Below, one piece after another: positions 1 to 51,134 of a DNA stretch of 57,411 nucleotides (positions within the stretch are counted from its first letter, which is position 1; the number at the start of each line of letters is the position of its first letter). A program made the translations under genes and the position numbers. The stretch lies in IMG/VR virus record IMGVR_UViG_3300020001_000001, positions 1-57,411 of that record; one strand, given 5' to 3'. The notes below the pieces were generated by a model. It ran no database searches, was not told where the DNA came from, and was given only the letters and a program-made list of their open reading frames with translations. Source of the stretch: a virus. Its lineage: Duplodnaviria > Caudoviricetes.

Positions 1-101
1 GCTCTGCGCCCTCCCCGGAATGATCCGCACTCGGAATGGGACCCGAACGATAGCCTCTCGCAACAATAGTCTCGCCCGCCCGTCAATCCGATATCCGAAC
101 G
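1..101. repeat. Terminal direct repeat (assembly overlap), identical to 57311-57411; indicates a circularised complete genome
   Basis: Exact 101-nt identity of both ends read directly. Confidence 0.95.
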
Positions 102-1051: not shown

Positions 1052-1108
1052 CGTTCGTACTCCTGGAAAGGGAAACCCCTGGCGCACAATGCCAGGGGGA
1101 AAGCCAGC

Positions 1109-2485
1109 CTATTTACGCGCAACCTTGCGGGTTGTCGCGCCAGTCATCGCTTGCGCCATTGCGCCGCGCTCAGTGCCGTTGGCGATGGCTTTGGACGCGA
1201 TAACGGCGGCCAGCGGCGCGGAACGATTGGCTTTTGCGATTGCCTTGCGCTCCGCTTCATTCGCGGCGGCATTACGCTCCGCTTCGTCCCTGCGACGTGT
1301 TTTGTCCGCCGCTTCCTTCGCCGCGACCACGCGAGCAACGGTAGCGAGCCGTTCCGTCTCGCGTTTGGCCGCTTCCACCTTGGCCGCTTCCCGCGCCTTG
1401 GCCGCAGTCTTTTCCTGCGCTTTGGTCAGTAACGGGATCGTGACCTTTGCCGGTACGGCTGGAATCGGCGCTGGCGCAGTGTCGCCCGGTTCGGATATGC
1501 CGACGAAGTGCTTCCAACCCATGTTGACGATTACGATCATCTTGCGTGCGGTAGCAGCATCTGCGAATGCGCAGACAATCGCGCCGTTCCGGTCGATCAT
1601 GTCACCGTCATGCTCGCCCTTGCCTTGCGAGAATGGTCCAGCAATGGCCGAAAACGGATCGGCGTTATCCGCCTTCGCGCGTGATGCCAATTCGGCATGT
1701 TGCGCGTTATTTTGCGCCAATCGGTCAACACGCGCCGCCGGAGCGGGCGGCGTCGCGCTCTTTTTGTTCTTGTCGCCGACGGTACGCTTGCCAGTCGCTT
1801 TTTCCTCCGCCTCGGCCAGTATCTTGCCACTGGCCTTTTTCGCGCCCGCGGCAATCGCGGCATCCTTCGCGCCCTTGCCAATCTCAGTTGCTTTTTTCTC
1901 GCCGTGCGCACCTGTCAGTAACACCGCCACTGTTGGCGCTATCCAGCCTTCTTTAATCAGCGCCTTCAATTCCGGGTTGGCGTTCGCCAGTTTCATTGCC
2001 TTGCGTACCCAGCCGATTGTTTTGATGCCGCATTGTGCGGCAATCTGAGTCTCGGTCATTCCCTCGGCCTTCAATTCCAGGTACGCCGCGCCCTTCTCGT
2101 GCTCGGCCAGGTGTTTTCCGGCATTGGAGTGGATTAGGTTCAAGAGCATATCGCGCTTGCTGCGTTCCGTACCATCTGCGTTCCGCGCCTCAGGAATGAT
2201 TGACACTTTTTTGACGCCAGCGCGGATCGCCGCCTCACGGCGCCTATGCCCGGAAATGACAAAAGTCTCTTGGCCGACAATGCGAACGGTAATCGGCTCA
2301 TCCATCAAGTACCCAGTCGCGAGGGCCATTGATGACACAAGCGAAGCGTCATCTTCGTCAATGTCTGGATCAAACGCATCGCGGACATTGTATCCCGGAA
2401 TAACCTTTAAGTTATTCGGGTCAATAACGTGCCACGGGCCGGACATGGTGACTGTTTTCGGCATATCAACATACTTGCTTGCCAT
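1109..2485 (-). CDS. ParB/RepB/Spo0J-like protein 1 (ParB N-domain, HTH, long Ala/Lys-rich C-terminus)
   Basis: GYNVR and PITV...VISGHRRREAA arginine patch; HTH GMTETQIAAQCGIKTIGWVRKAMKL; GGAG RBS before ATG 2485. Confidence 0.8.
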   Translation of the reverse strand: MASKYVDMPKTVTMSGPWHVIDPNNLKVIPGYNVRDAFDPDIDEDDASLVSSMALATGYLMDEPITVRIVGQETFVISGHRRREAAIRAGVKKVSIIPEARNADGTERSKRDMLLNLIHSNAGKHLAEHEKGAAYLELKAEGMTETQIAAQCGIKTIGWVRKAMKLANANPELKALIKEGWIAPTVAVLLTGAHGEKKATEIGKGAKDAAIAAGAKKASGKILAEAEEKATGKRTVGDKNKKSATPPAPAARVDRLAQNNAQHAELASRAKADNADPFSAIAGPFSQGKGEHDGDMIDRNGAIVCAFADAATARKMIVIVNMGWKHFVGISEPGDTAPAPIPAVPAKVTIPLLTKAQEKTAAKAREAAKVEAAKRETERLATVARVVAAKEAADKTRRRDEAERNAAANEAERKAIAKANRSAPLAAVIASKAIANGTERGAMAQAMTGATTRKVARK

Positions 2486-2556
2486 TTGAATTACTCCATT
2501 GCACTTGCGCCAATTCTCGCAACCCGTTGAACGCGGCGCTTCTTTCAACGTCCAAA

Positions 2557-2585
2557 ATAGTAACACAAGGTTATCGTCATGTCAA
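2557..2585 (-). promoter_or_regulatory. Sigma70-like promoter for ParB-like gene 1
   Basis: TTGACA-17 nt-TACTAT on the minus strand. Confidence 0.7.
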
Positions 2586-2793
2586 ATAGCCCTATCAGGC
2601 TGAAGTATACTTCTGGCCTTATCCCAACGCGCCCGCATTTCCGCGCGAACAACATAGCCAAGAGCGCACGTCATACGCACTTACGCGGGCGCATACGCGC
2701 ACGCGAGAACGCTCCGGTACGCGCGAGCGCCCGACGCACCCACGACGTACGCGCAAACAGGCCCGGACGTTTCCGCCCGAGCCTGTTACGCTT

Positions 2794-2868
2794 ACCCACT
2801 ATACGATTACGCGCACCCACTACTAATCATGTGCGGGCACCCACTATACGATTACGCGCACCCACTAC
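2794..2868. repeat. 30-bp direct repeat ACCCACTATACGATTACGCGCACCCACTAC x2
   Basis: Copies at 2794-2823 and 2839-2868. Confidence 0.85.
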
Positions 2869-3082
2869 GCATCTGGTGTTTGCGGCCACGACAACCCCCG
2901 ACGTGGCCCAGATGTTTGCCGCAACCGCATTGTCGCCCGGCGAGCACCGCGGCCATGTCCTGCTTACGCTTTCGTACTGTCGTGATCGCTACCTCCAATT
3001 CAGCCGCTACACGTTTGACACCGCGGCCACCCAACAACCGCAACCTGATCGCCCGGTCAATCGACGGCTCTATTCGGTTCAT
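2852..3082 (-). CDS. Small HTH protein with a Cys/His-rich tail
   Basis: GRGVKRVAAELEVAITTVRKRK HTH pattern; CGCGKH..H...C tail. Confidence 0.55.
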   Translation of the reverse strand: MNRIEPSIDRAIRLRLLGGRGVKRVAAELEVAITTVRKRKQDMAAVLAGRQCGCGKHLGHVGGCRGRKHQMRSGCA

Positions 3083-3470
3083 CCGGCGCCTCCTGAAGCG
3101 CCCGCAACGCTCGCAGCGTCATCTGACCGTGACCTCCGAGCGCACGCCATGCCGCGTACGCCGCTGCCGAACCGCGTGGCGACCACGTATTGCGCGAGTT
3201 GTCCGCCGCCCGGATCGTGCGTGCGACCTGCACCATGAATCTGTCCAGTTTACCCGCATCCGCCGCCCAGGCATACCGGGTCAACTTCGCCCGGTATGCA
3301 GCGAGGAAAGCGTCTTTCGTCGGCGCTCCCGTGTCGTTCCGTCGTTTCAGTTCCGCCGAGATGATGACGGCTCTCCACTGTTCCAGCGGCCCGCAAAGCC
3401 TATCGAGCAACGTCTGCGTCCCTGTGCACCTGACCGCGCATCTAAACCTGTTGCGTACGTTCGGAATCAC
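3057..3470 (-). CDS. Hypothetical protein
   Basis: Translationally coupled ORF in the leftward operon. Confidence 0.6.
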   Translation of the reverse strand: MIPNVRNRFRCAVRCTGTQTLLDRLCGPLEQWRAVIISAELKRRNDTGAPTKDAFLAAYRAKLTRYAWAADAGKLDRFMVQVARTIRAADNSRNTWSPRGSAAAYAAWRALGGHGQMTLRALRALQEAPDEPNRAVD

Positions 3471-3748
3471 GACTTTCTCCCCTGCCCCATAATCGCCAAC
3501 GTGATATCGGTCAGTTCGTCGATGATCTGCTGTAGTCCAAGAACGCGGTCAACGTGCTGCTGTCGCGCAACGCCGTAAGCCTCTGGCGGCATCGTCTGGT
3601 AGTCGCGACCATGCGGACAGCACCCGGTCAGGTAATCCATTGCCGTTTGCAGGTTCGATATCGCCGCGCGGTTCGCGACGATCAACGCGACCGCGCTTGT
3701 CCCGTTGAGGTTAACCGTCGGCACGATTAGTGTCCGTTTCGTCTCCAT
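3467..3748 (-). CDS. Hypothetical phage protein (PHGRDYQ motif)
   Basis: AGGAGG RBS; ORF in operon. Confidence 0.75.
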   Translation of the reverse strand: METKRTLIVPTVNLNGTSAVALIVANRAAISNLQTAMDYLTGCCPHGRDYQTMPPEAYGVARQQHVDRVLGLQQIIDELTDITLAIMGQGRKS

Positions 3749-3773
3749 TTAATCCTCCTGAGTGAAGTATACT

Positions 3774-3869
3774 TCAGCCGCCCGCCAGCACCACTACCAG
3801 CGGACGCAGCACGATCGGGTACGCCGCGACAAACGCGACGAGCCCGGTCACGATCGACAGCGTTCTCAC
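3774..3869 (-). CDS. Tiny hydrophobic membrane peptide
   Basis: GTG overlaps the upstream stop; VRTLSIVTGLVAFVAAYPIVLRPLVVVLAGG. Confidence 0.4.
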   Translation of the reverse strand: MRTLSIVTGLVAFVAAYPIVLRPLVVVLAGG

Positions 3870-4012
3870 GAACGCCAGAGACGGTTCAGAAACCGCTGGT
3901 ACTCCTGGCCCGCTGCGTATCCGCGAGCGTAGCAGGTGGTCCCGACAAGTATTCCGACCGCCACGGCGACCGCTACGCAATAGGTAATCACGTCAAACAA
4001 ATCGAAGTGCAT
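3866..4012 (-). CDS. Small membrane protein (48 aa, below the ORF-track cutoff)
   Basis: GGAGG RBS; MHFDLFDVITYCVAVAVAVGILVGTTCYARG... Confidence 0.5.
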   Translation of the reverse strand: MHFDLFDVITYCVAVAVAVGILVGTTCYARGYAAGQEYQRFLNRLWRS

Positions 4013-4023
4013 CGTACCCCCTC

Positions 4024-4218
4024 CTAAAACCGATAGCGCCGAAACAATTCCTGCGCCGCCTTATGCTCTTTCAGCATTGCCCGGTACAGGTCCTGTCGCT
4101 TTTTCCTGTACTTCCTTCCCCGGCCCTCCGGGTTGAGCAACCGTCTCGTCGCCCGTATGACCTCCACGTTGCTCTGACTGACGTGTAGGCCCAATCGGCA
4201 GTACGTCCCGTACATCAT
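4024..4218 (-). CDS. Basic hypothetical protein
   Basis: ATGA overlap with the upstream gene. Confidence 0.65.
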   Translation of the reverse strand: MMYGTYCRLGLHVSQSNVEVIRATRRLLNPEGRGRKYRKKRQDLYRAMLKEHKAAQELFRRYRF

Positions 4219-4739
4219 TCGCGCTCCTGATCGCCTTCGCCGATCTCCGCAGCATCAGCGAACGCCTGCTCGATCCCGGCGTTTATCGACGGTCCCGCGT
4301 CGAACCAGCCCGCGATTTTAGCCATGCGCTCCAGGTGATCCACGATGGCCAGAGACTCGTCGCCAAGCGGAGTACCGCCCCGCGTCGCTGTCCAGTGTTC
4401 GCGAGCCGCCGCGAACGTCGGAAAATCGCGACACCCGGCTTGAACTCGGATCGTTTTTTCACGACGGGCCAGAAAAATATAGCCGTCTGACCGTTGACCT
4501 CCGCAGATGATCCCGGCGCCCGTCATGTCGGCGCCACTCATGTTGGCGCCCCTCATGTTGGCGCCCCTCATGTTGGCGCCCGTCATGTTGGCGCCCGTCA
4601 TGTTGGCGTCCCTCATGTCGGCGCCACTCATGTTGGCGTCCCTCATGTTGGCGCCCCTCATGTTGGCGCCCGTCATGTTGGCATTTCGGAAATCACGTTT
4701 GCCCGCAGCGTAACGCGCCTCAAATTCTTCACGGGTCAT
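4215..4739 (-). CDS. Pentapeptide-repeat protein
   Basis: Tandem A(N/D)M(T/R/S)(G/D) repeats; AGGAG RBS; C-terminal VQAGCRDF domain typical of phage pentapeptide proteins. Confidence 0.85.
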   Translation of the reverse strand: MTREEFEARYAAGKRDFRNANMTGANMRGANMRDANMSGADMRDANMTGANMTGANMRGANMRGANMSGADMTGAGIICGGQRSDGYIFLARREKTIRVQAGCRDFPTFAAAREHWTATRGGTPLGDESLAIVDHLERMAKIAGWFDAGPSINAGIEQAFADAAEIGEGDQERE

Positions 4740-46586: not shown

Positions 46587-47129
46587 TCAGTCGCGATGCT
46601 CTCTCACGAACCCGCGTGGCGTCATAAACAGGTCCAGTTCAAGTTGGGCGCTCTTGGCGTTAAAGGTTTCCAGTACCGCTTGGTCCAGGTCGATCCCGGC
46701 TTCCGCCGCTAAGAGGTCCAGGTAGATCACCACGTCGGCCAACTCGCGGGCGAGCATCGGCTTCGCTTCGTGCAGCGTCATATCGCCGCGCCTGATTTTC
46801 TTCAGGATGTTCCCGGCTTCGCCCAATTCGCCGGAAGTCGCGGTGTACCAATCATTAAGCGACCAATCGCGACCGCTGTGTTTTATCTCGCCTTTGGCGT
46901 TCTTGAACAGCGGGCAGCGCGCGAGGTTCGACCCGCGTAAAACGCGGAACGTCAAGGCGTCGCCGAAGGCCAACGCCGTTCCCGGCATCAGGTATCGGGA
47001 TATTTTGTCTTCATAGATCAGTCGTTGCGCTTCCGCTGTCGTCATCACCCCGTTGCGAAGCGCATCGGCGTTCGGATCAGACTTCTCCGCGAGCGTCCGA
47101 GAAGCGACCCCATTTTCGACGTGTGTCAT
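46587..47129 (-). CDS. MazG-like nucleotide pyrophosphohydrolase
   Basis: GELGEA.N..KK...ELADVVIYLDLLA. Confidence 0.85.
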   Translation of the reverse strand: MTHVENGVASRTLAEKSDPNADALRNGVMTTAEAQRLIYEDKISRYLMPGTALAFGDALTFRVLRGSNLARCPLFKNAKGEIKHSGRDWSLNDWYTATSGELGEAGNILKKIRRGDMTLHEAKPMLARELADVVIYLDLLAAEAGIDLDQAVLETFNAKSAQLELDLFMTPRGFVREHRD

Positions 47130-47737
47130 AGTCCTGCATCTCCTAATTTTTCCAATACCAGCCAATATGAGTGGTATTTACGCGCGTGTCTCTGGCGAAG
47201 GACCGGGTTGTATGCCGGACCGTATGTTCGGTATCGCACGAGGATGTCCTTCGCGTAGAAGCCCCTCGCTCTGGCCCATTGCCATACATGGCAATGGGTG
47301 AGCGTCGTTTTGCTGTCAGTGTAGTCCTGAGTTTTGAAAGCGACAATGCCGCCAGGACGAAGAACGCGGTAGAACTCATTCAGCGCCCCCTTGTAAGTGC
47401 GTTCAAGTTCCTCCCAGGACTTGAACATTGTGAAGCGACCGGCTGCGGCGTTCTTCGTCAGGGCCGTGCCGTGCGGACTGTACATGAAAGGCGGATCGAA
47501 AACGATGCTGTCGAGTGACCTGGACTTTACCGGGAGGGCGGTTACGTTCGCTTGTTCGGTATCGAGGTCCTGCGGATCAATGTCGAACCGTAGCCGCGGC
47601 TTCGGCACAACGCCGCTCTTGTAGAACGAGCCGCGCGAGTAGCAGACATCGGCGTCGAACGGGAAGCCCGCGTTGTGCAATTTTATAATTCCGTTCAAAA
47701 TTTCATCGTCGGTAAGGGCGATAGATTTAACGACCAT
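47126..47737 (-). CDS. Putative amino (N6A/N4C) DNA methyltransferase
   Basis: DVCYSRG, SIVFDPPF, EFYRVLRPGG. Confidence 0.75.
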   Translation of the reverse strand: MVVKSIALTDDEILNGIIKLHNAGFPFDADVCYSRGSFYKSGVVPKPRLRFDIDPQDLDTEQANVTALPVKSRSLDSIVFDPPFMYSPHGTALTKNAAAGRFTMFKSWEELERTYKGALNEFYRVLRPGGIVAFKTQDYTDSKTTLTHCHVWQWARARGFYAKDILVRYRTYGPAYNPVLRQRHARKYHSYWLVLEKLGDAGL

Positions 47738-47784
47738 CGGAAGTTACTTCCGTTCTCCGGCATACTGTATGTTGCAACATCGTA

Positions 47785-50700
47785 TCAATCCTTGCGGTAG
47801 ATTGTTGCGAGATAGCCGGAGGCATCCAACGGTAAGCCAGTGGTCCAGGCTATCGCCTCAACCATGCACTTACGCAGCGCCTCCAACGTGTAACAGTTAT
47901 CACCCTTGCGGACAAGAGCAATCAGTTCGTCGTGGACGGAGCCGACGAGTTCGAAGCCAAACTCGCGAGCCCGGATCATCCCGATCTTCAAGATGTCGCG
48001 AGCAGTCGCTTGCACCACGTTCTCGCACTGTTTGCCGCCGCTGCTAAAGACGCGGCCCCATTGATGCGTGATCTGGTTCTTACCCATATATGACAATACG
48101 CGGCGCGTGAATACCGTTGGTTCGCCGGTAACACGATCCTTTCCCTCAAACTCCTTCGTGACGATCCGGGGTTTGTAGTAGTACATCGGGCGACCGGACG
48201 GCAGTTGAACCGTCAGGTAGGGGCCATTCATCGCAAAGCGTATCTTGCCATTGACCGTCGTCGGACGACCGTTCAACGCCGCCTTGGCTGCGTTCTCCAG
48301 GGCCGCCCAGAACTCCGGTATTTCAGAATAAATCTGTCGGAACAGTTTGACGTGCCGGTGCGCTTCCTCGCGTGTGATATCCACGCCCATGTTCTCGGCG
48401 TAACCCCACAGCCCGGTACGCTTGTTCCGCTTGAACTCGCCGCCGCCTAGCTGATAGGTGCAATTATGGACGATCAGCGGCCCGTCGCTTGTTAGCACCA
48501 TGAAACGATTTTGCGGTCCCGAATTGAGAATGTCGAACGTAGGCTCCCTTACACTTCGCTTGATCGGCGATAATGTGCTCGGCGGACAGGCCCTGTCGTA
48601 TTTTACGGGCAACTGTTCCGGCGTCGCGATATCGCGGTGCAAATCGTTCGGCAAATTCAACCGCGCACATTCGTTCTCCGCGGTAGTCGATCCATCGCAG
48701 GTCCTTTTTGTTTCGGTTATTCCGGGCTTCGGAAACGAAATGGATATTACCGGCCTCATAGTTTCCGTCATTGTCCTTCCGGTCGATGTCCAAAGTTGGA
48801 TCGCCGTGTCCCGGAAGCGTAAGACAATGCGCAATAAATTCGTATACGTCCCAAAATCTACACTTGATACCCCGTCCGCCATAGCGGTGTCCAGCATCTC
48901 CAGCGCCGCGGCACCGCGACTCAATCGCATAATATCGGTTTGCGAGTCTATCGACCACGTCTCGACCCGCGTGCCGAAATCGAACGTACACACCATTGGC
49001 GTGTTCACGTTGCGCCCGTCTTGCGCAGGGCAAGCAACTTCTACTCTTGCCAAGTTCAAGATTTTGTTGATAGACCGCCGCAACGTAGCCACAGGAACAT
49101 CTGCAAACATAGTGCAATCCATTCGTTCTGCGACTGGTGGAGACAACTTCCCACTCGCCAAAGCGATAGCCTTTTTCGCGATATCCGTATTTTGTGACAG
49201 CCGACATGCGCTCTCCCATTTATTAGCTCGAACGAGTACCTCGTGTCCTGGCGTCACTCGGACGCCGCCCAAATCTATTACGTATTTGTCGCCTTGGTAG
49301 ACAACGCCGCCGTGCGACACAAAATTCTCTCCATCGAACATTCTGTCAGCCGAAGTAACTTCAGAGATTTCAGCCCAACCGCGTTGGGTCAAAACCAGCG
49401 TATCGGATGCGAAACAACCCAGGACGGCGGGCTTGCATATCTGCCGCTCGGCTCCGGTGATCGCTGCGTAGGCTTTCTGATACAGTTCCACCCCGAAGTC
49501 GCGGTACGGGTCGCGGCCCTCGGCAAATACGTTCAACATACGCGTGCAGCCAGACAGCCACGCCGTTACGGCGGTTTCGATAGCCTTCAGATCACACACC
49601 AGAAGTTCGTAGCCTTCGGGTGCCTGAAATGCGGAGCGGACGGAACCGGCCAGCGCGATCATCGGCTCGTCGAACAGAAGCGACAGATCGGACATATTGC
49701 CGCTCTGGATGACGCGAGCCGCGACCTCCAACTTTTCCCAATTAAGCGGCGTATCGTCTTCCGGCTTCAGTTGCTTGGGCGTGTGGGTCAGGTTGTGTGG
49801 CTGTGGGCCGCGTCCAGCCCAACGCAGCGTACGAGCGGCGCCGACGAACTGAAACGAGTGTCGCAGGTTGTCGTCCGCCGAGAGTCGCCGCATGATCGCG
49901 GAGAACTTCTTAACGCTCGTGCGGCTGACGTTCTGCCGAAGACGTAACGCCTTCCGGGCGTCGTTCGTCAGCACTGGCTCACCGGCCTTCCGGCACTCTG
50001 TATCTTTCGCCAGCATTTTCTTCACGCTGGCTTTCTGAAGGTCCTCATATTCGTAGCCGCGTTCCTGAAGCCACGGAAGTAACTTCGCAGTCGAGTTGGG
50101 GTTCCACAGTTTCGTGAGCGTCTTCAATTCGCGTTTCAGTTCGGCGCGGCGGACCTCCGCGAGAATATCGGCGTTCTCGACGAACTCCCGGTTGACTGGC
50201 AGTCCACGATCGTTGATCTCCTGGTCACACTCGTACGCATCCCATTCGTCATCGGCGACCTCGTAGCGGATCAGCTTATCGCGAATGCCGTCCTCCGCGA
50301 CAACGTCCTGCGCGTTATAGTCACAGAACCGCTGCCAATCTTCGGGATCAGTTTCGCGAGTGCGCCTGACATGTGGGTTTTTCTGCGTGATCCTCTGCGG
50401 CTGACAGAACAGCTTGATAAGTCTGGACCCTTCCTTGTCCTTCAGCCTGAACTGCGGCAGACCCATAGCCGTGCCGATTTGAAACAGATCGCCGGTGAAC
50501 GACTGCATGTTGGCGAGCGCCGTCGTGCAGCGCCAGCCCTTCAGCGGCGTAGCGATCTTCAGGGTATTCATCGTGATAAGACGCTCGAAGGCTGCGTTGA
50601 AAGCCCACTTCTCGACCTCGGGATCGAGAAGCGCCACCTTCAGGTCAGCCGGGAACGGGTTGCACGTCAGATCGACATGTTGCACACCGAAGCCGTCGTG

Positions 50701-50889
50701 CATGTCATAGGCGACCATCAGCGCGCGGGTTGACGGATGAACGCTGTACTCCCACACGCCGACGCTACTGGCGCCGGTCAGTGGGGCTTCGCTGAAAGTT
50801 TCGTAATCGCAACTAACGCGTTTCCGCGTCCCTTCGGAACGACGGATACCCGCGTCAGACTGCACGAATGTCGTGCCGTCCAATGGCAT
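47785..50889 (-). CDS. Family A DNA polymerase containing an intein
   Basis: DYET and AFNAAFER exonuclease motifs; motif A DLKAIE; motif B RQICK; ENVVQA.ARD; VHDE. Confidence 0.93.
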   Translation of the reverse strand: MPLDGTTFVQSDAGIRRSEGTRKRVSCDYETFSEAPLTGASSVGVWEYSVHPSTRALMVAYDMHDGFGVQHVDLTCNPFPADLKVALLDPEVEKWAFNAAFERLITMNTLKIATPLKGWRCTTALANMQSFTGDLFQIGTAMGLPQFRLKDKEGSRLIKLFCQPQRITQKNPHVRRTRETDPEDWQRFCDYNAQDVVAEDGIRDKLIRYEVADDEWDAYECDQEINDRGLPVNREFVENADILAEVRRAELKRELKTLTKLWNPNSTAKLLPWLQERGYEYEDLQKASVKKMLAKDTECRKAGEPVLTNDARKALRLRQNVSRTSVKKFSAIMRRLSADDNLRHSFQFVGAARTLRWAGRGPQPHNLTHTPKQLKPEDDTPLNWEKLEVAARVIQSGNMSDLSLLFDEPMIALAGSVRSAFQAPEGYELLVCDLKAIETAVTAWLSGCTRMLNVFAEGRDPYRDFGVELYQKAYAAITGAERQICKPAVLGCFASDTLVLTQRGWAEISEVTSADRMFDGENFVSHGGVVYQGDKYVIDLGGVRVTPGHEVLVRANKWESACRLSQNTDIAKKAIALASGKLSPPVAERMDCTMFADVPVATLRRSINKILNLARVEVACPAQDGRNVNTPMVCTFDFGTRVETWSIDSQTDIMRLSRGAAALEMLDTAMADGVSSVDFGTYTNLLRIVLRFRDTAIQLWTSTGRTMTETMRPVISISFPKPGITETKRTCDGSTTAENECARLNLPNDLHRDIATPEQLPVKYDRACPPSTLSPIKRSVREPTFDILNSGPQNRFMVLTSDGPLIVHNCTYQLGGGEFKRNKRTGLWGYAENMGVDITREEAHRHVKLFRQIYSEIPEFWAALENAAKAALNGRPTTVNGKIRFAMNGPYLTVQLPSGRPMYYYKPRIVTKEFEGKDRVTGEPTVFTRRVLSYMGKNQITHQWGRVFSSGGKQCENVVQATARDILKIGMIRAREFGFELVGSVHDELIALVRKGDNCYTLEALRKCMVEAIAWTTGLPLDASGYLATIYRKD
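48463..49416 (-). mobile_element. Intein (318 aa) in polymerase motif B
   Basis: Block A CFASDTLV, block B TPGH, block F FDILN, terminal VHN followed by C+1; removal restores KPAVLG-CTYQLGG. Confidence 0.92.
48464..49207 (-). CDS. HNH homing endonuclease in an alternative frame within the intein
   Basis: CRCSCG, SCLPC, YGGRGI, IDRKDNDGNYEAGN...NNRNK; GGAG RBS before ATG 49207 (alternative ATG 49219). Confidence 0.85.
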   Translation of the reverse strand: MSAVTKYGYREKGYRFGEWEVVSTSRRTNGLHYVCRCSCGYVAAVYQQNLELGKSRSCLPCARRAQREHANGVYVRFRHAGRDVVDRLANRYYAIESRCRGAGDAGHRYGGRGIKCRFWDVYEFIAHCLTLPGHGDPTLDIDRKDNDGNYEAGNIHFVSEARNNRNKKDLRWIDYRGERMCAVEFAERFAPRYRDAGTVARKIRQGLSAEHIIADQAKCKGAYVRHSQFGTAKSFHGANKRRAADRP

Positions 50890-51134
50890 CAGATGAACTC
50901 CAGTTCGTGTTGATTGGCGTCGGCGATGCGGTTTTGCGTCAGCTTTCCGATATATTCGCGGTAAGCCCGGAGGTCGCGCTCGATGCGCTTCCCCCGGTCT
51001 TCCGCAATCAGTCCGTAAGCGAAACCCGCGTGTATCGAACGCTCGCGGATATCTTCTTCCAGTCTTCTTACTTCGTCACGCCACGTCTTCCACTCGTCAA
51101 CCGAAAAAGGCGCCCGGTTAGACTTGTTGCCCAT
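50889..51134 (-). CDS. Hypothetical protein
   Basis: TGATG coupling to the polymerase. Confidence 0.6.
   Translation of the reverse strand: MGNKSNRAPFSVDEWKTWRDEVRRLEEDIRERSIHAGFAYGLIAEDRGKRIERDLRAYREYIGKLTQNRIADANQHELEFI

Follow-up and report, generated by a model that had tools for sequence, protein, structure and literature searches.

A predicted HNH-like homing endonuclease gene nested out of frame in the intein of a phage family-A DNA polymerase

Background

Can a single insertion in a phage polymerase gene carry an intein in the frame of its host and, on the same strand, a homing endonuclease gene in another frame? This question is raised by the family-A DNA polymerase gene of the virus record IMGVR_UViG_3300020001_000001 (Duplodnaviria; Caudoviricetes). 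The window, by which we mean the whole stretch of DNA that was analyzed, is this complete virus record of 57,411 nucleotides (nt) with direct terminal repeats. A preliminary description, read from the sequence, had the polymerase frame pass through a 318-residue intein whose centre is the shadow translation of an HNH endonuclease gene. Every detail of the layout given there was correct (coordinates, motifs, the TAATAA and GGAG at the start, the stop codon within CAT AAT). Its mechanistic reading also appears largely right, with the catalytic competence of the predicted HNH-like protein being plausible. We consider it probable that the polymerase gene harbors a composite selfish element, made up of a mini-intein-like HINT (Hedgehog/intein) domain and an HNH-like gene in the -1 frame, for which we infer splicing, internal translation and homing.

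Results

The polymerase gene (47785..50889; minus strand, like all features below unless stated otherwise) was assigned to family A by Pfam (DNA_pol_A, E 3.2e-16) and PHROG (phrog_17, E 2.7e-91). It encodes a precursor of 1034 residues, which predicted splicing would reduce to an enzyme of 716. The 318 codons of the class-1-type intein (48463..49416) are precursor residues 492-809 and read CFASDTLVLT...TPGHEVLV...LIVHN, followed by C. Thus Cys1, T55-x-x-H58, His317-Asn318 and the +1 Cys are all present. The insertion lies in polymerase motif B, between CKPAVLG and CTYQLGGG. In all seven aligned intein-less relatives the 318 intein columns are empty, with not a single residue. The three nearest of these relatives (63-67% identity) join CKPAVLG directly to C(S/A)YQLGGG and share with the window 20-26 of the 30 nt on either side of the insertion.

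Conservation within the intein is confined to its two ends. In alignments of six and of nine homologous inteins, invariant columns occur solely at residues 1-91 and 295-318. C1, T55, H58, H317 and N318 are invariant in 6/6 and 9/9 sequences, and the invariant residues of the C-terminal part are D295, G300, P301, F305, H317 and N318. An AlphaFold model, which was made from 6 sequences only, gave a predicted local distance difference test score (pLDDT) of 73-86 for the N-terminal splicing region, where invariant columns cluster (residues 1-91; 49144..49416), and for the C-terminal one (residues 288-318, ending in ...FDILNSGPQNRFMVLTSDGPLIVHN; 48463..48555; about 82 here). Residues 92-287 in between (48556..49143) scored below 50. 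Here the polymerase frame runs through the HNH gene out of register without meeting a stop; this central part contains no invariant column in either alignment, matches no family in Pfam or PHROG and is predicted to be disordered.

The best 32 structural matches of the model are all intein/Hint domains, and the next match falls to Z 3.4. With the Mtu RecA intein the superposition reached Z 13.7 with a root mean square deviation (rmsd) of 2.8 Å over 117 residues. A profile of the nine inteins found 11 matches in the PDB, all of which are inteins or bacterial intein-like (BIL) domains (best E 0.0065). Since the precise absence, the invariant columns, the profile matches and the fold agree, the insertion is, as judged by these models, a real class-1 intein. 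Its two ends are predicted to make a complete HINT domain and its middle to be a disordered loop.

The hidden ORF (open reading frame; 48464..49219, 251 codons and a TAA stop) runs in the -1 frame relative to the polymerase and contains the motifs VCRCSCG, SCLPC, RYGGRGI, IDRKDNDGNYEAGN and NNRNK. In its start region (49205..49225, read from the sequence) an in-frame TAATAA (49220..49225) abuts ATG 49219, and GGAG (49213..49216) lies 5 nt upstream of ATG 49207. The TAA stop (48464..48466) straddles the junction of the intein's terminal His and Asn codons (CAT AAT), taking one base from the former and two from the latter. Two PHROG families, both named HNH endonuclease, matched the ORF (phrog_374, E 1.2e-22; phrog_3377, E 6.5e-19). 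Its structure model has a pLDDT of 84.3 and falls below 50 at tail residues 232-246 alone, which overlap the C-terminal splicing block of the intein. These results bear out the proposal of a real homing-endonuclease-family ORF in the other frame.

Relatives of the hidden ORF were found by tblastn in 458 phage records, and in an alignment of 36 sequences it aligns end to end with free-standing homologues. The hidden and the free-standing genes have in common a four-Cys N-terminus, RC.NP....Y..YGGRGI, IDRKDNDGNYEPGN, Q..N and a C-terminal helix-turn-helix-like part. The four cysteines (C41, C43, C62, C65; 49025..49099) form a zinc-ribbon-like motif that is nearly invariant in the 36 sequences. 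For the small N-terminal beta-barrel of the hidden protein, weak structural matches (Z 4.7-5.5) were obtained with Tudor/SH3-like domains and with the Hpy99I N-domain.

The same architecture was present in at least 11 other inspected phage or metagenome polymerase genes. Nested layouts were found in Pseudomonas phage MR14, Vibrio phage 97.13 and Streptococcus phage Javan255, and five more Streptococcus records have the same match under 'DNA polymerase I'. They were also found in the metagenomic contigs L014, L015 (=L165), L137, L145 (=L146) and L160; the HNH of L145 is 57% identical to that of the window. A tblastn search with the intein matched 186 phage records, 140 of which are Salmonella phages, and showed the nested layout in Hamiltonella phage APSE-1, Sodalis phage SO-1 and Salmonella Jerseyvirus EnJE6.

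The insertions occupy several points within two conserved regions of the polymerase. The motif B site, directly after KxxxLG, is used in the window, L145, Vibrio 97.13 and Javan255, and a site 4 residues before it in MR14, SO-1 and EnJE6. In L014, L015, L160 and L137 the insertion falls between GGKxxEN and ..QAxARD, and that of APSE-1 is nearby. The offset of the HNH frame is -1 in ten of the 12 inspected members (window, L001, L002, L014, L015, L137, L145, L160, SO-1, EnJE6) and +1 in Javan255 and APSE-1. By blastp nearest neighbours, a measure that carries no support values, the -1-frame HNHs are mutual nearest relatives whatever their insertion site, and the nested HNH of APSE-1 is nearest to free-standing genes. 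This grouping suggests that HNH genes were acquired at least twice.

Which frame is under selection was judged from five pairs of loci (the window with L145; MR14 with Vibrio 97.13; L014, L015 and L160 among themselves). In the centre the identity was 55-85% in the HNH frame versus 27-59% in the polymerase frame. The ratio of nonsynonymous to synonymous differences per site (pN/pS) was 0.14-0.40 in the HNH frame of the centre versus 0.99-1.90 in the polymerase frame. At the two ends the pattern was reversed: the polymerase frame had 0.17-0.49 and the HNH frame 0.41-1.31, with one HNH-frame value of 0.29 that came from 19 codons. This reciprocal pattern is as expected if the centre encodes an HNH-like protein and the ends a splicing domain. 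As estimated from these ratios, the HNH frame is under purifying selection in the centre and the polymerase frame at the ends. The proposed dual coding over about 750 nt is overstated. Constraint in both frames is apparent in the overlaps with the splicing blocks alone, while the polymerase frame in the centre looks merely open.

In the window the polymerase frame has no stop over the 251 HNH codons. Synonymous recodings (5000, drawn with each ORF's own codon usage, which makes this control conservative) had a mean of 3.4 stops, and 1.8% of them had none. The host frame was free of stops over the approximately 250 HNH codons in all nine nested cases tested, for which the recodings averaged 2.4-16.4 stops, and stop-free recodings made up between 0 in 5000 and a fraction of 0.07. 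Among 109 distinct complete homologous ORFs, a +1 frame without stops was found in just the five nested ones; the others had 2-24 stops. At 160 loci with an HNH match, another open frame on the same strand reached at least 940 residues in 11 (a count that includes the window itself and duplicate contigs), 295 and 383 residues in two, and at most 192 residues in 147. Judged by these controls, the open polymerase frame is not a product of chance.

The frame of 383 residues belongs to L187, a short GC-rich metagenome contig, where it extends from 303 to 1451 and overlaps an HNH-like ORF at 697-1179 with a +2 offset. Hint blocks are absent from it, and a reverse-transcriptase-like motif stands at its end. 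This overlap may be due to chance or represent another kind of nesting.

Several further observations concern the hidden ORF and its relatives. An antisense ORF of 280 residues (48458..49300, plus strand) spans the intein, its codons lying in register opposite those of the HNH frame; in five of nine loci, antisense runs of 155-278 codons were likewise open. Probably such runs arise because the HNH frame seldom uses TTA, CTA and TCA, which fits an antisense ORF that is a by-product of HNH codon usage. Ten database proteins (P0004-P0013) are 46-57% identical to the hidden ORF. The C-terminal ends of five of them (P0004, P0005, P0007, P0010, P0011) resemble the last 20-40 residues of the window's ORF, with ...KCKGAYLRH.. 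in four of the five, and judging by their sequences P0004-P0013 may also be nested in inteins. In Staphylococcus phage vB_SauM-V1SA15 (L231, 1477-2115) a free-standing HNH-like homologue is labelled deoxyuridine 5'-triphosphate nucleotidohydrolase, and this label looks wrong. The corresponding Staphylococcus Kayvirus 'dUTPase' match was rejected as a nested case, the gene being free-standing and HNH-like.

On the 3' side of the polymerase gene (46587-47737, minus strand) two ORFs were recognized by eye: one of 203 residues with a DPPF-type methyltransferase-like motif and a MazG-like one of 192 residues. For the window itself, the outcome is mainly one of annotation: the polymerase gene should be entered as the gene of an intein-containing precursor, and the HNH-like gene nested in it at 48464..49219 should be listed too.

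Discussion

The reading of the locus as a composite selfish element builds on its observed anatomy, on two predicted folds, on selection that is specific to one frame in each region, on close alleles that lack precisely this element and on its recurrence in other phages. The element would work as follows. The HNH-like gene sits at the usual insertion point of an intein endonuclease, on the same strand and in the -1 frame. Ribosomes on the polymerase frame would read straight through the insertion, so that the central ~196 residues, a stop-free shadow of the HNH gene, would have no function of their own and form a disordered loop. The two ends (~91 residues at the N-terminus, ~31 at the C-terminus) would assemble into the HINT domain and splice, joining CKPAVLG to CTYQLGGG. 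Ribosomes that initiate internally, at ATG 49207 or 49219, would yield the HNH-like protein as a separate product. In a co-infection it would nick or cut intein-less alleles, and repair would copy the whole element.

Some results weigh against this interpretation. Pfam had no match to the window's intein, and TIGR01445 matched it with E 0.13 and 13.3 bits, below the cut-off of 24.5. Among the nine intein members, Vint and Hint_2 were each matched in one. For the hidden ORF, neither Pfam nor NCBIfam gave a match. At the internal start there is no promoter signal (2 promoter-like sites versus 1.1 expected from shuffling) and no special RNA fold (z 0.04), neither result being informative. The beta-beta-alpha-metal fold is weakly matched, the best VIA match being PacI (3m7k_A) with Z 5.6 (rmsd 3.3 Å over 89 residues, model residues 74-174), which is below the tool's decisive level, and Foldseek found no match of the hidden ORF model in the PDB at E≤1e-3. 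The catalytic general-base His75 of I-HmuI is replaced by Arg147, and this position is Arg in 36/36 aligned members. The indel check rests on contigs of one sample, possibly the source of the window itself.

These points lead to the question of whether the hidden protein is a nuclease. The family profile had a sole match in the PDB, I-HmuI (E 0.09), and the HNH-like core D146-R147-K-D-N-D-G-N-Y-E-A-G-N158 (48746..48784) aligns with 74-DHKDgNkdNNlstN of this enzyme. By this alignment D146 corresponds to D74, R147 to H75 and N170 to N96. R147, N150, Y154, E155 and N158 are invariant in the 36 aligned sequences. Of the metal-ligand positions, N170 is nearly invariant and the Asp column varies in some members. 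No position across the 36 sequences has a conserved His. The term 'full HNH protein' used in the preliminary description hence went too far. PacI is an HNH restriction enzyme reported to use a Tyr in place of the catalytic His. With the His absent and the PacI match weak, but with this Tyr and the invariant Y154, a nuclease activity of the hidden protein is no more than plausible. A distant relative of 303 residues (P0044) has a Pfam HNH_3 match, which is taken to be N-terminal, plus a GRGI...DRKDNDGNYE module. This would suggest that the module itself is not the classical HNH_3 domain.

An alternative is that the protein is not, or is no longer, a nuclease. It could be an HNH-derived DNA binder that serves regulation or exclusion, in an intein that is inherited mostly vertically. 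The Arg in place of the catalytic His, the lack of a Pfam HNH match and the low score of the fold match to HNH enzymes (Z 5.6) would all fit such a role. Yet the family behaves like homing endonucleases: free-standing copies occur in the 458 phage records, some of them adjoin intein-less polymerase genes, and some family members carry AP2 or helix-turn-helix DNA-binding modules. Homologous inteins are inserted at several points in polymerases of unrelated hosts, and close alleles precisely lack the element. Furthermore, the counterparts of Asp74 and Asn96 of I-HmuI are retained, PacI is reported to employ a Tyr where the His would stand, and Y154 is invariant in the family. We therefore consider a non-nuclease unlikely.

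The hidden ORF could also be a decaying relic. In this case an ancestral in-frame HNH intein would have suffered two compensating frameshifts and the HNH frame would be dead. In-frame HNH inteins are reported in the cited part of a preprint on actinobacteriophages (10.1101/2025.01.02.630785), and the low-confidence tail of the hidden ORF (residues 232-246) could be taken as a sign of decay. However, the HNH frame is intact and has its own start in 12/12 inspected members, with about 30% identity between lineages, and its low pN/pS in the centre (0.14-0.40) is not that of a dead frame. Five longer ORFs (L016, L033, L172, L173, L026) included no in-frame HNH intein and none with Hint blocks. We regard a relic as very improbable.

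Hardly more credible is a group I intron that harbors the HNH gene and is spliced out of the transcript. The notes on gp38/gp39 of NC_013600 do say 'type I self-splicing intron'. An intron needs no open frame, however, and every one of the inspected insertions leaves the polymerase frame open. The ends of the insertion form the predicted HINT fold with Cys1, TxxH, HN and the +1 Cys, and no Rfam family was found in 47700..51000 at E≤1.

A further possibility is that ribosomes shift out of the polymerase frame, so that the HNH-like protein would arise fused to the N-extein and the N-terminal part of the intein. The polymerase frame contains G AAA AAG at about 49171..49177, near the start of the conserved HNH region, and the open HNH frame of several members reaches deep into the N-terminal splicing region. 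Yet G AAA AAG falls short of a complete X XXY YYZ heptamer, and the window, much like L145, has in-frame stops that abut the ATG or lie a short way 5' of it. Shine-Dalgarno-like sequences precede the starts in five members (window, Javan255, L002, L014, L015). From these and the start codons we infer that the hidden ORF would be translated independently, and a frameshift product seems a remote prospect.

An assembly or sequencing artefact, for which merely the metagenomic nature of the assembly speaks, is practically negligible: contigs from two DNA runs matched a 1301-nt stretch of the window with 0 differences and 0 indels, although both runs stem from a single sample that is possibly the window's source and are not independent of it, and no indel error needs to be invoked because the same layout recurs in isolate phage genomes and independent metagenome assemblies.

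Seen from its relatives, a free endonuclease that invaded a mini-intein, as had been suggested for this locus, fits the data. Free-standing relatives exist, some of them beside intein-less polymerases, and the nested HNH of APSE-1 is nearest to free-standing genes. Four loci have a free-standing HNH-like gene directly 3' of an intein-less polymerase (L117, 3465-4070; L126, 3537-4064; L130, 3468-4064; L081, 3552-4019). This arrangement fits an endonuclease family that targets the polymerase region.

How common the intein family is was estimated with a profile of six inteins, which matched 3038 representative proteins (clusters at 50% identity) at E≤1e-3 and 648 at E≤1e-30. Both the N- and the C-terminal blocks were matched in all 149 best representatives other than the window's polymerase. 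A profile of the central shadow only also matched 42 of these 149 (library-wide E≤1e-3). In a sample of 53 representatives, 42 had DNA_pol_A, 11 no family at E≤1e-5 and none another family. In P0060, P0062, P0063, P0070, P0072, P0079 and others, two N-blocks and two HN[CST] ends were seen; by their sequences these polymerases seem to carry two inteins of the family in one gene.

A far-reaching interpretation is that the overlapping-frame layout is the ancestral and prevailing state of a large, old family of inteins in phage family-A polymerases, in which the mini-intein and the His-less HNH-like gene co-evolved as a mobile unit. We see the chances for and against this as evenly balanced. If it is true, the layout is no rarity and extends to thousands of clusters at 50% identity. 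Annotation would then miss the nested gene systematically because gene callers suppress nested ORFs, and overlapping endonuclease genes would be a common route to bifunctional inteins or a stable alternative to them. The layout that recent literature calls rare is widespread in phage family-A polymerases, including those of Salmonella and E. coli/Shigella phages. As it occurs in easily grown phages, three questions can be tested in tractable relatives: how the nested endonuclease gene is translated, whether splicing is influenced by a disordered loop of ~200 residues, and whether homing can be driven by an HNH-like protein that lacks the catalytic His.

Comparison with known systems

The closest known cases are phage genes that are already annotated. 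APSE-1 (NC_000935) has a family-A polymerase, P45, with a homologous intein (tblastn E 9e-12, 100% of the query), and inside this intein, out of frame and on the same strand, an HNH-like ORF of the same family, which RefSeq lists as 'HNH endonuclease' P46 within P45. For P46 RefSeq gives just 141 residues of an open frame of 222. In contrast to the window, the APSE-1 insertion point lies near the GGKxxEN...QAxARD region (YGGKS, then C...HN, then CENICQAAAR) and the offset is +1. Its HNH is closest to free-standing genes and falls outside the clade of the window. SO-1 (gp38/gp39) and EnJE6 share with the window an intein in the motif B region and a hidden ORF of about 250 residues at a -1 offset. 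In their HNHs they fall together with MR14 and Vibrio 97.13, the HNH of the window being a more distant member of this group. Unlike in the window, the insertion is 4 residues earlier (GKA, then C...HN, then CELGLGY), as in MR14. The EnJE6 polymerase is named 'intein-containing DNA polymerase precursor' and its hidden ORF is unannotated.

In the SO-1 record (NC_013600, L233) gp39 lies inside gp38 and is ascribed to a 'type I self-splicing intron'. The polymerase frame (1094-4282) is open through the insertion, which bears the intein ends Cys1...AHN followed by C; the nested ORF is at 2578-3336. From its sequence, the intron label looks like a mis-annotation.

The APSE polymerase intein is described as differentially lost in the part of PMC7313666 cited here, and in that of PMC549080 van der Wilk 1999 is cited for inteins in bacteriophages and prophages. 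Our literature searches, whose reach did not extend to preprint supplements, returned no paper on a family of HNH genes in polymerase A inteins as such.

Related layouts have been described in other hosts, and are compared here as far as the cited portions of the sources go. In a cyanobacterial dnaX intein a LAGLIDADG gene occupies the +2 frame; the preprint calls this layout 'a rarity' and credits Gorbalenya 1998 (10.64898/2026.09.14.751524). As in the window, the host frame encodes the splicing domains and, between them, a disordered centre, and the endonuclease folds in the overlapping frame, where it has a Shine-Dalgarno-like start and a low ratio of nonsynonymous to synonymous substitution rates (10.64898/2026.09.14.751524). 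The differences are that the nuclease is of the LAGLIDADG type and not HNH-like, and that the host is a cellular dnaX and not a phage polymerase (10.64898/2026.09.14.751524). For actinobacteriophages, inteins with an endonuclease in another frame or on the other strand were reported and invasion by free-standing genes was proposed (10.1101/2025.01.02.630785). Unlike in the window, the out-of-frame type there is endonuclease VII-like, with its catalytic core at residues 1-67, and the HNH inteins are in frame (10.1101/2025.01.02.630785).

The ShiLan domain in a mycobacteriophage methylase resembles the window in that an out-of-frame HNH ORF lies in a stop-free insertion and has its stop inside the last bases of the insertion (PMC11855218). 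According to the cited part of that article the insertion has no detectable splicing domain, whereas the window has a complete predicted HINT domain (PMC11855218). With fractured genes and split inteins the window shares a free-standing endonuclease gene at the endonuclease position of an intein (PMC2677866). There, however, the host gene is broken into two ORFs whose products are trans-spliced, while the host frame of the window is continuous (PMC2677866).

The novelty that the preliminary description had left to a literature check did not hold up. The window is not a new kind of element because RefSeq already annotates nested pairs in APSE-1 and SO-1 and because preprints of 2025-26, in the portions cited above, describe inteins with out-of-frame endonucleases. 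It is a further case of a widespread architecture that is already annotated in known phages.

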